Position numbers and translations under genes: made by a program
Part shown: positions 27,024-52,044 of the stretch, one piece after another
Numbering within the stretch: position 1 is the first letter of the stretch
How the letters are laid out: every line of letters starts with the position of its first letter
The notes under the pieces: model-generated
Database searches by the model: none
What the model was told of the DNA's origin: nothing
Seen by the model: only the letters and a program-made list of their open reading frames with translations
From: Eledone cirrhosa
Lineage: Eukaryota
Length of the DNA stretch: 64,000 bases
Assembly: GCA_964016885.1 (NCBI GenBank)
Contig: OZ024743.1
Location: 349,866,001-349,930,000 of the forward strand
Direction of reading: 5' to 3'

Positions 27024-28634
27024 GTTTTGCGAGGTTTTTTATATGAATTCGTGTGTCGAAACAAATATTGTTATACTTGGGGAGGGTCATATTTGTGTAA
27101 TATTGCCAGAATTAATAACAGAACACACTCACTGTTTGGTTGGTTTTCGCTTTTCGCTTCTGTGTCTTTTATATCGGTAATCTAATATACTCGGTCCTCA
27201 ATGTTGCCATTGACTGACCGACGGTCAAAAATAATATAGATACACTATAGACACAAACACATATATATAGTTTATCATTGAGGACCGAGTATATTAGATT
27301 ACCGATATAAAAGACACAGAAGCGAAAACCAACCAAACAGTGAGTGTGTTCTGTTATTAATTCTGGCAATATTACACAAATATGACCCTCCCCAAGTATA
27401 ACAATATATATATATATATATATATAGGAAAAGAGTCAGGACCCCGACGGCTGAGCTCCGGCCGTTTCGACAGCTAGATTCTACTACCCTAAGTATCGAA
27501 TACTCTGATGCGTTATGGTCCAGCTTGTTCCTTACCACACTTTTTATTTTGTTATATATATATATATATAAATACATATATTTAATCAAGGCTAAATTAT
27601 GAGTCGTGTTACTCTGGCGTTCCGCCTGTCTATGACATGCTCATTAGATATTGTCTGATCACTCTCTCTCTCTCTCTCTCTCTCTCTCTCTCTTTATATA
27701 TATATGTGTGTGTGTGCGCGCGTGCGCGAGTATGTGTAAAAGGTTAACTGAAATAACAACACAAATGGGACTGAAGATTGTGTAGACGGCAGCGCAAAAT
27801 CGGAAAAAAAACTTAGAGAAAAATAACAAGTGGATATGTAGAAAAAGGGTTATCATTACTAAAGGATAGGAAGTTAAACGGTACAATCGACTTCACTTTG
27901 GAGTATGCAACTATTATTTTCAAGGCAGCAAATTCAATTTCAAAGAAGCTCCCGTCTTTAAAATAAAAATGACTTCTTTCGCAATTCGGAAAATCTAATA
28001 TACAATATAACGTGGAAAGGCCTGCTCGACATTATGTTACACGGGCTCTTCACTCCGAAAACGAATGACAGTTTATCGTCTACAAACCAGGGACCAATGA
28101 ACCAGAAAGATCCCTCTCAGTCAACACGTAGAGTAACGTGCAGGGCGAATCGACCCAAATTTCGAGGTCTTCCCTTCCTATTAGCGTAGTGAAAATTTCA
28201 CTTCGTAAAAACAGAGTAGTAAGGATAGATTTTTCATTAATCAATTCAAACCAAAACAATGTTTTACGCACAAAAAAATGTATATACAAAAATAAATATA
28301 TATATATATATAAATATATATATATATATATATATATATATATATATATTTATATATATATATATAAACGGAAAAAATGAAACGAAATTTCATTTCCCAC
28401 TCTTAGTACGGCTGTTACTTAAATATAAGTATGTTTACGTACATACATATATGTATACAGACGTACAGTAGTATATATATATATATATACATACATGTCC
28501 ACATATATATATGTACGTATGGATGCACCGAACATTTATTATAATGCTCGGTGTGTTTGTAAACAAACATCCCGAATTAAGCCATACAGTGTCTAGCAAC
28601 CATCGTTGCTCATTTGTACAACACTGACAAAGGA

Positions 28635-28677
28635 ACGCTGTACTAGTTTCAAGCTTATTAGCTATCGTCAGCAACAT
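28635..28677 (-). ncRNA. Type I hammerhead ribozyme motif, array unit 1
   Basis: Minus strand ATGTTG-CTGACGA-T-AGCT-AATA-AGCT-T-GAAA-CTAG-TA-CAGCGT: 6-bp stem I (2 GU), stem II AGCT/AGCT closed by U.U, palindromic stem III ACTAGT, GUA site. Confidence 0.75.
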
Positions 28678-29055
28678 ATACCTTCCTGCCAGATGGTTGA
28701 ACGTCTGAAAGTATATACTTTTCTTATGCATATTAACACGGCTGAGCAGCCTAATTTGCATATCGTGTGAGTTAATCGGCCGGGGTACCGAAAACGATAA
28801 ACGGAAAAAATGAAACGAAATTTCATTTCTCACTCTTAGTACGCCTGTTACTTAAATATAAGTATGTATATGTACATATATATATGTATACAGACGTACA
28901 GTAGTATGTATATATATATATATATATATATATATATATATATATATACATATATATATATATACATATATATATATATATATATATATATATATATATA
29001 TATATATATATATAGTTTTGCGAGGTTTTTTATATGAATTCGTGTGTCGAAACAA

Positions 29056-29405
29056 ATATTGTTATACTTGGGGAGGGTCATATTTGTGTAATATTGCCAG
29101 AATTAATAACAGAACACACTCACTGTTTGGTTGGTTTTCGCTTTTCGCTTCTGTGTCTTTTATATCGGTAATCTAATATACTCGGTCCTCAATGTTGCCA
29201 TTGACTGACCGACGGTCAAAAATAATATAGATACACTATAGACACAAACACATATATATAGTTTATCATTGAGGACCGAGTATATTAGATTACCGATATA
29301 AAAGACACAGAAGCGAAAAGCGAAAACCAACCAAACAGTGAGTGTGTTCTGTTATTAATTCTGGCAATATTACACAAATATGACCCTCCCCAAGTATAAC
29401 AATAT
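29056..29405. repeat. Perfect 139-bp inverted repeat with 72-bp spacer (unit 2 shown; present in all 11 units)
   Basis: 29056-29194 is the reverse complement of 29267-29405. Confidence 0.95.
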
Positions 29406-29852
29406 ATATATATATATATATATAGGAAAATAGTCAGGACCCCGACGGCTGAGCTCCGGCCGTTTCGACAGCTAGATTCTACTACCCTAAGTATCGAATA
29501 CTCTGATGCGTTATGGTCCAGCTTGTTCCTTACCACACTTTTTATTTTGTTATATATATATATATATAAATACATATATTTAATCAAGGCTAAATTATGA
29601 GTCGTGTTACTCTGGCGTTCCGCCTGTCTATGACATGCTCATTAGATATTGTCTGATCACTCTCTCTCTCTCTCTCTCTCTCTCTCTCTCTCTCTCTCTC
29701 TCTCTCTCTCTCTCTCTCTCTCTTTATATATATATGTGTGTGTGTGCGCGCGTGCGCGAGTATGTGTAAAAGGTTAACTGAAATAACAACACAAATGGGA
29801 CAGTGTATGGAAGGAATATATTAGTTTAGCGCTTGAAATAGCAGGAAGAGGG

Positions 29853-29888
29853 TCTTAACGTTTCGAACGCTAATCGTTCATCAGAAGA
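29853..29888 (-). ncRNA. Second, decayed minimal hammerhead motif in array units 2-11 (unit 2 shown)
   Basis: Minus strand TCTT-CTGATGA-A-CGAT-TAGC-GTTC-GAAA-CGTT-AAGA; homologous to 7136-7171 but stem II is mismatched; deleted in unit 1. Confidence 0.55.
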
Positions 29889-49201: not shown

Positions 49202-49244
49202 ACGCTGTACTAGTTTCAAGCTTATTAGCTATCGTCAGCAACAT
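49202..49244 (-). ncRNA. Type I hammerhead motif, array unit 10
   Basis: Identical to 28635-28677. Confidence 0.75.
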
Positions 49245-51514
49245 ATACCTTCCTGCCAGATGGTTGAACGTCTGAAAGTATATACTTTTCTTATGCATAT
49301 TAACGGCTGAGCAGCCTAATTTGCATATCGTGTGAGTTAATCGGCCGGGGTACCGAAAACGATAAACGGAAAAAATGAAACGAAATTTCATTTCTCACTC
49401 TTAGTACGCCTGTTACTTAAATATAAGTATGTATATGTACATATATATATGTATACAGACGTACAGTAGTATGTATATATATATATATATATATATATAT
49501 ATATATATATATATATATATATATATATATATATATATACATATATATATATATATATATATATATATATATATATATATATATATATATATATATATAT
49601 ACATATATATATATACATATATATATATATATATATATATATATATATATATATATATATATATATATAGTTTTGCGAGGTTTTTTATATGAATTCGTGT
49701 GTCGAAACAAATATTGTTATACTTGGGGAGGGTCATATTTGTGTAATATTGCCAGAATTAATAACAGAACACACTCACTGTTTGGTTGGTTTTCGCTTTT
49801 CGCTTCTGTGTCTTTTATATCGGTAATCTAATATACTCGGTCCTCAATGTTGCCATTGACTGACCGACGGTCAAAAATAATATAGATACACTATAGACAC
49901 AAACACATATATATAGTTTATCATTGAGGACCGAGTATATTAGATTACCGATATGAAAGACACAGAAGCGAAAAGCGAAAACCAACCAAACAGTGAGTGT
50001 GTTCTGTTATTAATTCTGGCAATATTACACAAATATGACCCTCCCCAAGTATAACAATATATATATATATATATATATATATATATATATATATATATAT
50101 ATATATATATATATATATATAGGAAAAGTGTCAGGACCCCGACGGCTGAGCTCCGGCCGTTTCGACAGCTAGATTCTACTACCCTAAGTATCGAATACTC
50201 TGATGCGTTATGGTCCAGCTTGTTCCTTACCACACTTTTTATTTTGTTATATATATATATATAAATACATATATTTAATCAAGGCTAAATTATGAGTCGT
50301 GTTACTCTGGCGTTCCGCCTGTCTATGACATGCTCATTAGATATTGTCTGATCACTCTCTCTCTCTCTCTCTCTCTCTCTCTCTCTCTCTCTCTCTCTCT
50401 CTCTCTCTCTCTCTTTATATATATATGTGTGTGTGTGCGCGCGTGCGCGAGTATGTGTAAAAGGTTAAATGAAATAACAACACAAATGGGACAGTGTATG
50501 GAAGGAATATATTAGTTTAGCGCTTGAAATAGCAGGAAGAGCGTCTTAACGTTTCGAACGCTAATCGTTCATCAGAAGAACGAACGAGAAATTTGAAAGA
50601 CTGAAGATTGTGAAGACGGCAGCGCAAAATCGGAAAAAAAACTTAGAGAAAAATAACAAGTGGATATGTAGAAAAAGGGTTATCATTACTAAAGGATAGG
50701 AAGTTAAACGGTACAATCGACTTCACTTTGGAGTATGCAACTATTATTTTCAAGGCAGCAAATTCAATTTCAAAGAAGCTCCCGTCTTTAAAATAAAAAT
50801 GACTTCTTTCGCAATTCGGAAAATCTAATATACAATATAACGTGGAAAGGCCTGCTCGACATTATGTTACACGGGCTCTTCACTCCGAAAACGAATGACA
50901 GTTTATCGTCTACAAACCAGGGACCAATGAACCAGAAAGATCCCTCTCAGTCAACACGTAGAGTAACGTGCAGGGCGAATCGACCCAAATTTCGAGGTCT
51001 TCCCTTCCTATTAGCGTAGTGAAAATTTCACTTCGTAAAAACAGAGTAGTAAGGATAGATTTTTCATTAATCAATTCAAACCAAAACAATGTTTTACGCA
51101 CAAAAAAATGTATATACAAAAATAAATATATATATAAATATAAATATATATATATATATATATATATATATATATATATATATATATATATATATATATA
51201 TATATATATATATATATATATATATATATTTATATATATATATAAACGGAAAAAATGAAACGAAATTTCATTTCCCACTCTTAGTACGGCTGTTACTTAA
51301 ATATAAGTATGTTTACGTACATACATATATGTATACAGACGTACAGTAGTATATATATATATATATACATACATCTCCACATATATATATATGTACGTAT
51401 GGATGCACCGAACATTTATTATAATGCTCGGTGTGTTTGTAAACAAACATCCCGAATTAAGCCATACAGTGTCTAGCAACCATCGTTGCTCATTTGTTCA
51501 ACACTGACAAAGGA

Positions 51515-51557
51515 ACGCTGTACTAGTTTCAAGCTTATTAGCTATCGTCAGCAACAT
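51515..51557 (-). ncRNA. Type I hammerhead motif, array unit 11
   Basis: Identical to 28635-28677. Confidence 0.75.
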
Positions 51558-52001
51558 ATACCTTCCTGCCAGATGGTTGAACGTCTGAAAGTATATACTT
51601 TTCTTATGCATATTAACGGCTGAGCAGCCTAATTTGCATATCGTGTGAGTTAATCGGCCGGGGTACCGAAAACGATAAACGGAAAAAATGAAACGAAATT
51701 TCATTTCTCACTCTTAGTACGCCTGTTACTTAAATATAAGTATGTATATGTACATATATATATGTATACAGACGTACAGTAGTATGTATATATATATATA
51801 TATATATATATATATATATATATATATATATATATATATATATATATATATATATATATACATGCCCACATATATATATGTACGTATAGATTCACCGAAC
51901 ATTTATTTTAATGCTCGGTGTGTTTGTAAACAAACATCCCGAATTAAGCCGTTCAGTGTCTAGCAACCATCGTTGCTCATTTCTTCAACACTGATAAAGG
52001 A

Positions 52002-52044
52002 ACGCTGTACTAGTTTCAAGCTTATTAGCTATCGTCAGCAACGT
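52002..52044 (-). ncRNA. Type I hammerhead motif in the diverged second monomer beyond the array end
   Basis: Same core; stem I is ACGTTG/CAGCGT (C-G where the array copies have U-G). Confidence 0.78.

Follow-up and report, generated by a model that had tools for sequence, protein, structure and literature searches.

A tandem array of hammerhead-bearing units

We analysed 64,000 nucleotides of the Eledone cirrhosa genome (assembly GCA_964016885.1, contig OZ024743.1, forward-strand positions 349,866,001 to 349,930,000), hereafter the window, in whose own numbering positions are given. The window holds a tandem array of 11 composite units of ~2.2 kb (27024-51860, minus strand), both ends of which lie in (AT)n tracts; units 1 to 11 start at 27024, 29015, 31230, 33431, 35676, 37903, 40149, 42390, 44623, 47419 and 49670. 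A hammerhead ribozyme motif on the minus strand, ATGTTG-CTGACGA-T-AGCT-AATA-AGCT-T-GAAA-CTAG-TA-CAGCGT, is identical in 11/11 units, at (position C3 in brackets) 28635-28677 (28671), 30772-30814 (30808), 32983-33025 (33019), 35218-35260 (35254), 37439-37481 (37475), 39689-39731 (39725), 41924-41966 (41960), 44167-44209 (44203), 46961-47003 (46997), 49202-49244 (49238) and 51515-51557 (51551). The predicted cut, placed 30/31 nt after C3, falls at 30778/30777 in unit 2 and at 28641/28640 in unit 1, the same minus-strand position as in an earlier note made on this DNA. The C3-to-C3 distances (2137, 2211, 2235, 2221, 2250, 2235, 2243, 2794, 2241 and 2313 nt along the array) reproduce the 11 copies and the 2137-2313-nt spacing (2794 with an insert) reported there, to which our recount adds a twelfth hammerhead, 487 nt past the last copy of the array. 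It lies on the minus strand outside the repeated unit (52002-52044, C3 at 52038) and has ACGTTG, the consensus of the dispersed family described below, where the array copies have ATGTTG in stem I.

The units are more than 99% identical, with 0-10 substitutions between any two over ~1,740 microsatellite-collapsed columns and only ~20 variable sites per ~1,740 columns, and they show distinct shared and private substitutions. Unit 1 has deletions of 109 bp and 7 bp; unit 9 alone has a later, unstranded insertion of 564 bp (45039-45602) in an (AT)n tract, 97% identical to dispersed copies with inverted structure.

The motif has the core CUGANGA / GAAA / UH with three stems that characterises a type I hammerhead: a 6-bp stem I that continues beyond a bulge, a 4-bp stem II on a U.U base, and a stem III of a single pair plus the palindromic CUAG. 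This bears out the earlier reading of a type I hammerhead of the retrozyme or Penelope kind with palindromic stem III. The motif is not a chance match, because a type I descriptor gave 0 matches in 3000 dinucleotide shuffles of one unit and the reversed pattern gives 0 in the genome. Searches with the Rfam hammerhead families, a check that had been suggested, returned no match at the gathering score in the window, nor at E<=10 in one unit. Matches of one unit to Rfam miRNA models below the gathering score were set aside as chance matches from the hairpin and the AT repeats. The base of stem II lacks the standard G10.1-C11.1 pair: among 48 distinct copies, U stands at 10.1 in 48 and at 11.1 in 47. 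This U.U had been raised as a non-canonical feature; it is the family consensus and a tolerated natural variant, found in the active axolotl hammerhead HHR_Amex2 (PMC7229834) and described as the best-tolerated mismatch at this position (PMC3088659), and is no objection to a hammerhead. With a stem III of one pair plus the palindrome, a dimer is predicted to be necessary for cleavage (as set out in PMC4209133).

Around its hammerhead, the unit consists of one monomer of the dispersed family, a predicted retrozyme, and four fragments of other dispersed repeats, of different ages and with microsatellite tracts between most parts; we give the parts for unit 2 as an example. Part A (30504-31043, minus strand) is one retrozyme monomer with ~150 nt of the preceding one, has 4-5 differences from the family consensus in ~285 nt, and ends at the 276 3' end of the family. 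Part B (29990-30410, plus strand, antisense to the hammerhead) is an old, decayed open reading frame (ORF) remnant, 72-78% identical to its dispersed copies; its segment 29994-30160 matches a frame of locus L054 by tblastn (E 8e-9). By its motifs, and with no Pfam match, part B appears to resemble the endonuclease region of a Penelope-like element (PLE). Part C (29761-29970, minus strand) comes from the 3' end of a further dispersed element and carries a decayed hammerhead of the minimal form (C3 at 29884), in which C.C replaces the G10.1-C11.1 of its family and which is deleted in unit 1. This second hammerhead, present in 10/11 units, was missed by the earlier note; an intact minimal hammerhead of the same family lies at 7140 on the plus strand. 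Part D (29426-29660, minus strand) is a short dispersed repeat with internal inverted structure, 83-92% identical to its dispersed copies.

Part E (29015-29405, minus strand) is the 3' end of a young PLE together with its 5' inversion, 97-99% identical to dispersed copies. The inversion forms a 139-bp inverted repeat (arms 29056-29194 and 29267-29405 in unit 2). The claim that each unit has a perfect 139-bp hairpin therefore holds for the inverted repeat as such and for its perfection only in 7/11 units, 1-4 mismatches being found in three and the 7-bp deletion breaking it in unit 1. By its sequence, the hairpin is the scar of another PLE's insertion, namely its 5' inversion. Its fold-back junction (29267-29275) lies within 1-3 nt of the predicted cut of part E's own hammerhead, which is intact in L075-L080, and the same junction occurs once elsewhere in an independent insertion (L072, G000:C537:52109-52140); it may mark the 5' end of a self-cleaved RNA, and a microhomology of 2-3 nt could also explain it. 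At L078 the part E sequence lies downstream of a GIY-YIG-like ORF and, as a lead, part E has an Atlas score of 0.97 to clusters with GIY-YIG on 13-18% of their members. Parts B, C and E resemble remnants of PLEs; Pfam searches with nine PLE-like fragments gave no relevant match. An ORF for reverse transcriptase plus GIY-YIG is absent between the hammerheads: the unit is without a long ORF and has only the decayed antisense remnant.

A dispersed family of ~425-nt hammerhead monomers

The 39-nt hammerhead core has 4,812 exact and 9,526 relaxed-pattern matches in the 3.0-Gb genome. At the loci examined, it sits in an ORF-less monomer of ~420-430 nt that occurs singly, as dimers and in arrays of many copies. 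The period of the native arrays is ~403-442 nt; L033 has 12 copies, L081-L082 have 45 cores and L144-L146 have 56. These arrays too have multiplied broken cores (intact 7/12, 36/45 and 37/56, respectively); tandem amplification therefore does not require an intact ribozyme. The two giant arrays (C1:51.77-51.79 Mb for L081-L082 and C1:96.99-97.04 Mb for L144-L146) also show higher-order patterns, with 20-34% of their cores broken. Four monomers taken from cut to cut fold as circles with stem I formed (z -7.1 to -9.3, 30 shuffles each; GC 0.36-0.39). We predict that this family of ~10,000 copies is a non-LTR retrozyme, given its ORF-less tandem monomers, the structured circle fold, a compensatory change in stem I and the Penelope-type insertion marks described below. 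Short hammerhead monomers in tandem, the lack of ORFs, dispersal from monomers to multimers, low GC and a self-paired circle are all found in it, and the functional unit is the ~425-nt monomer, not the 2.2-kb unit.

The likeness to the metazoan non-LTR retrozymes described so far (PMC7229834) extends to ORF-less tandem organisation, a canonical type I hammerhead, a GC of 36-39%, the self-paired predicted circle, a range from dimers to long arrays and coexistence with PLEs. Unlike the monomers listed there (220-245 bp in coral, 350-390 bp in mussel and 330-350 bp for axolotl and newt satellite 2), those of Eledone reach ~420-430 nt, and their hammerhead combines a one-pair stem III with palindromic tetraloop, as in HHR_Amex1, with the U.U stem II base of HHR_Amex2. 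Our search of the literature on octopus and cephalopod hammerheads, retrozymes, macrosatellites and Penelope, which did not extend to Repbase, Dfam and most subscription papers, returned no description of the ~425-nt family or of such an array, and the main text of a 2026 repeat annotation of Octopus vulgaris uses neither "ribozyme" nor "retrozyme" (PMC13282606).

An older subfamily (L121-L140, 92-94% identical to L098) has an A-U pair in stem I, and a third is marked by the loop II sequence AACA and a monomer length of 422 nt. Between the older subfamily (21 regions) and the main family (29 regions), 17 sites differ within 135 nt on either side, none of them in the stretch from C3 to H17; in stem I, both members of one pair differ, U.G in the main family being A-U in the older subfamily, with the core unchanged. 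Taken by itself, the lack of changes in the core falls short of significance (P 0.16, 31-nt stretch). As judged from these comparisons, hammerhead function at the level of the family is supported, not proven.

How might such a family be copied? Insertion ends were scored in 51 of 69 loci examined, most of them chosen for holding the motif. Of the 76 insertion 3' ends, most fall into two clusters, 29 at 214-226 nt and 33 at 263-276 nt past the cut, usually with (AT)n behind them, and 0/76 lie within 10 nt of the cut; 75 insertion 5' ends are scattered, and both orientations are present in 20/51 loci. PLEs are known to have a two-start "tail" (PMC11167929) and to leave inverted 5' copies with a bias to (TA)n (PMC8557442), so that the two clusters of 3' ends, the inverted 5' copies and the (AT)n targets argue for mobilisation by a PLE reverse transcriptase and endonuclease: the retrozyme family is likely copied by PLE enzymes. 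The two 3' ends of the family are ~56 nt apart, as compared with a PLE tail of 30-40 bp in the papers. At L032:3281-5230, a truncated PLE-like ORF with C-terminal endonuclease stands head-to-head with a retrozyme monomer without a spacer; this single case is suggestive, either of a candidate mobilising family or of a template switch. PLE ORFs near monomers in L022 and L036, considered as partners, proved to be separate insertions.

How the array may have formed

The array most probably arose, at about three chances in four, by passive DNA-level duplication of a patch of transposon remnants, with the hammerhead as a passenger. The junction of parts B and C occurs 11 times genome-wide, always in the array; the 2.2-kb unit thus shows no dispersal by retrotransposition, its junction being found at one locus only. 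The likely parent is preserved at the right edge as a retrozyme insertion on the minus strand (51245-52308), with an inverted 5' piece (52185-52308) followed by two tandem hammerhead copies that end at the canonical 3' end of the family, before (AT)n. The right end of the array lies in an AT tract inside the first monomer of this insertion and the left end in the AT tail of part E; every internal unit junction fuses the same two, which places the unit boundaries within (AT)n and away from both the cleavage site and the family's 3' ends. The caveat, already in the earlier note, that the array may have passively amplified a ribozyme relic is therefore favoured by the genome data, namely the single-locus unit, the (AT)n ends and the dispersed family. 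A second composite tandem duplication of ~2.55 kb, 98.3% identical, holds the hammerhead in both orientations at L088:485-6092 (G000:C1:19.62 Mb).

We propose that transcripts of native tandem monomers cleave as dimers through the palindromic stem III and that the cleaved monomers circularise; a PLE RT/GIY-YIG protein would then copy monomer RNA into (AT)n targets by reverse transcription that begins at either of two internal sites. On this view, an insertion of this kind came to lie next to PLE remnants of greater age, and the AT tail of part E recombined with the AT tract in the first monomer of the insertion. The outcome would have been a 2.2-kb duplication, which unequal exchange then carried to 11 copies. 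The array hammerheads are predicted to cleave worse than those of the family, and only with minus-strand read-through.

In its scale, the array resembles macrosatellites derived from transposable elements (a model cited in 10.64898/2026.07.22.740005), being a single-locus, kilobase-scale array of transposon fragments with more than 99% unit identity; unlike these, each unit includes a complete hammerhead and a long inverted repeat. Its period of 2137-2313 nt is outside the 51-972 bp given for retrozyme monomers (10.64898/2026.07.22.740005, where the TRF period limit was 1000). The features shared with PLEs (PMC4209133, PMC8557442, PMC11167929) are 5' truncation, inverted 5' copies, (TA)n targets, two 3' ends and a multi-kilobase hammerhead spacing; unlike PLEs, the array has no ORF for reverse transcriptase and endonuclease between its hammerheads.

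Several points weigh against this account of the array and its family. All core nucleotides are intact in 12/12 window copies, including 11/11 array units; given how little the array varies, less than one change would be expected in the motif, and intact cores cannot separate selection from youth. At the family level, the deficit of broken pairs between subfamilies (3 against 6.6 expected, P 0.026) was counted on a fold predicted from the main family itself, the 48 distinct copies show one pair changed on both sides against 1.1 in shuffles, and covariation is thin, its score being reached by 3/500 shuffles. No autonomous PLE sharing the monomer as a pseudo-long terminal repeat (pLTR) was found in 85 loci (678 kb), setting aside the PLE ORFs that lie within 500 nt at L023, L089 and L109, so that PLE mobilisation rests on the insertion signatures. 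Lastly, a beta-lactamase-domain exon with a signal-peptide-like start lies on the minus strand 84 kb left of the array (L103:2460-2843); because it is preceded by a splice acceptor, its 5' exon should lie towards or beyond the array, and minus-strand read-through is possible.

That exon is one argument for the strongest competitor, which keeps the passive origin and adds that minus-strand read-through, from a long first intron or a retrozyme promoter, yields ~2.2-kb linear or circular RNAs with the hairpin as a by-product. The intact cores of all 12 copies and the PLE hammerheads known to lie ~3 kb apart (PMC4209133) speak for it too, and a double hammerhead is predicted to form. The ATGTTG allele of stem I, a CpG-type change found in all 11 array copies and with only 174 exact matches genome-wide, speaks against it: predicted stem I pairing is at most 0.08 in 9/9 ATGTTG copies versus at least 0.77 in 22/25 consensus copies (three window copies included). 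Likewise, the double hammerhead is predicted at -23.8 kcal/mol for the array allele versus -27.4 for the consensus, 3.6 less stable, with competing folds at -29.6 and -31.0. These are secondary-structure figures that ignore tertiary loop contacts, a further point on the side of the array's ribozymes; as modelled, the allele is predicted to weaken stem I folding. A one-pair stem III is moreover combined with a U.U stem II base and a partner 2.2 kb away, and 8/9 predicted Xenopus retrozyme dimers remained uncleaved in vitro (10.64898/2026.07.22.740005). We regard read-through products as unlikely; a 2.2-kb monomer or circle would require transcription of the minus strand across the array. The unit-specific stretch 29765-30410 is present in three sequencing runs from one sample, none listed as RNA, where a contig covers 29843/29846-30410 without differences, which attests presence only and gives neither copy number nor strand.

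A second alternative concerns the family: the ~425-nt monomer could be the pLTR of an autonomous PLE and not a free retrozyme. The PLE-type ends and inversions, and the seamless head-to-head join at L032, would fit; against them stand the long ORF-less monomer arrays, the canonical 6-bp/4-bp hammerhead (versus the bulged minimal form in parts C and E), and the 0/52 monomer-holding loci, their flanks partly read by eye, in which a monomer lies directly downstream of a sense ORF. We consider this improbable. To a bolder form of the read-through idea we give slightly less credence still: that minus-strand transcripts of the array process themselves into ~2.2-kb circles with a 139-bp double-stranded RNA arm, so that the array would be a nascent giant retrozyme and a source of small RNAs against several Penelope families at once. 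We are just as doubtful of the corollary that duplications trapping a retrozyme monomer make arbitrary kilobase DNA hammerhead-flanked; if the array did give 2.2-kb circles, it would show how large ribozyme-flanked circular RNAs can develop from small ones.

A reading of the whole 2.2-kb unit as a large retrozyme with cargo, whose hammerhead-to-hammerhead circle was copied into 11 units by rolling-circle reverse transcription, is largely refuted and very improbable. It would account for the co-oriented hammerheads, the near-identical units and the retrozyme-type inverted piece at the 5' end of the array, and conflicts with a unit that is confined to this locus and ends in (AT)n instead of at the cut or the family 3' ends, with the absence, downstream of the last unit, of the hammerhead that a founding circle would need for its closure, and with parts that have separate insertion scars and ages (72% to 99% identity to their families). 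An assembly artefact, conceivable in so microsatellite-rich a region, is scarcely credible given the distinct shared and private substitutions, the 109-bp and 7-bp deletions of unit 1 and the 564-bp insertion in unit 9 only.

Surroundings of the array and significance of the family

Elsewhere in the window, Pfam searches on 113 of 148 filtered ORFs matched only domains of the LINE (long interspersed nuclear element) type and, weakly, zinc fingers. A fragmented LINE with RVT_1 and DUF6451 matches lies at 9897-11890 (plus strand). The C2H2 match (17793-17984) falls inside a duplicated repeat of 363 bp and is presumably a LINE end, and the broken ORFs at 20603-21804 (plus strand), which have no Pfam match, resemble a hAT-type transposase remnant. 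A tRNA-like match of 29.8 bits at 54521-54578 (plus strand) is probably the head of a tRNA-derived short interspersed nuclear element (SINE), and two head-to-head hammerheads of a third type, whose stem I has 8 bp, lie at 59489 (plus) and 59241 (minus). In 200 kb of flanks, where Pfam covered 150 of 227 ORFs, plus-strand ACE (Peptidase_M2) exons occur right of the array (L113, L114 and L117), and two Helitron remnants lie in the flanks (L110 and L112); no 5' exon of the minus-strand beta-lactamase-domain gene came to light among these ORFs.

Ordinary repeat turnover most likely explains the array, and the useful result is a retrozyme family of ~10^4 copies with a Penelope signature. Mobilisation of retrozymes by PLEs has been proposed from their coexistence and phylogeny (PMC7229834, 10.64898/2026.07.22.740005), to which the insertion ends described here add mechanistic genomic support. 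These ends also define the RNA region that a PLE reverse transcriptase should recognise, for which an in vitro PLE assay exists (PMC11167929).

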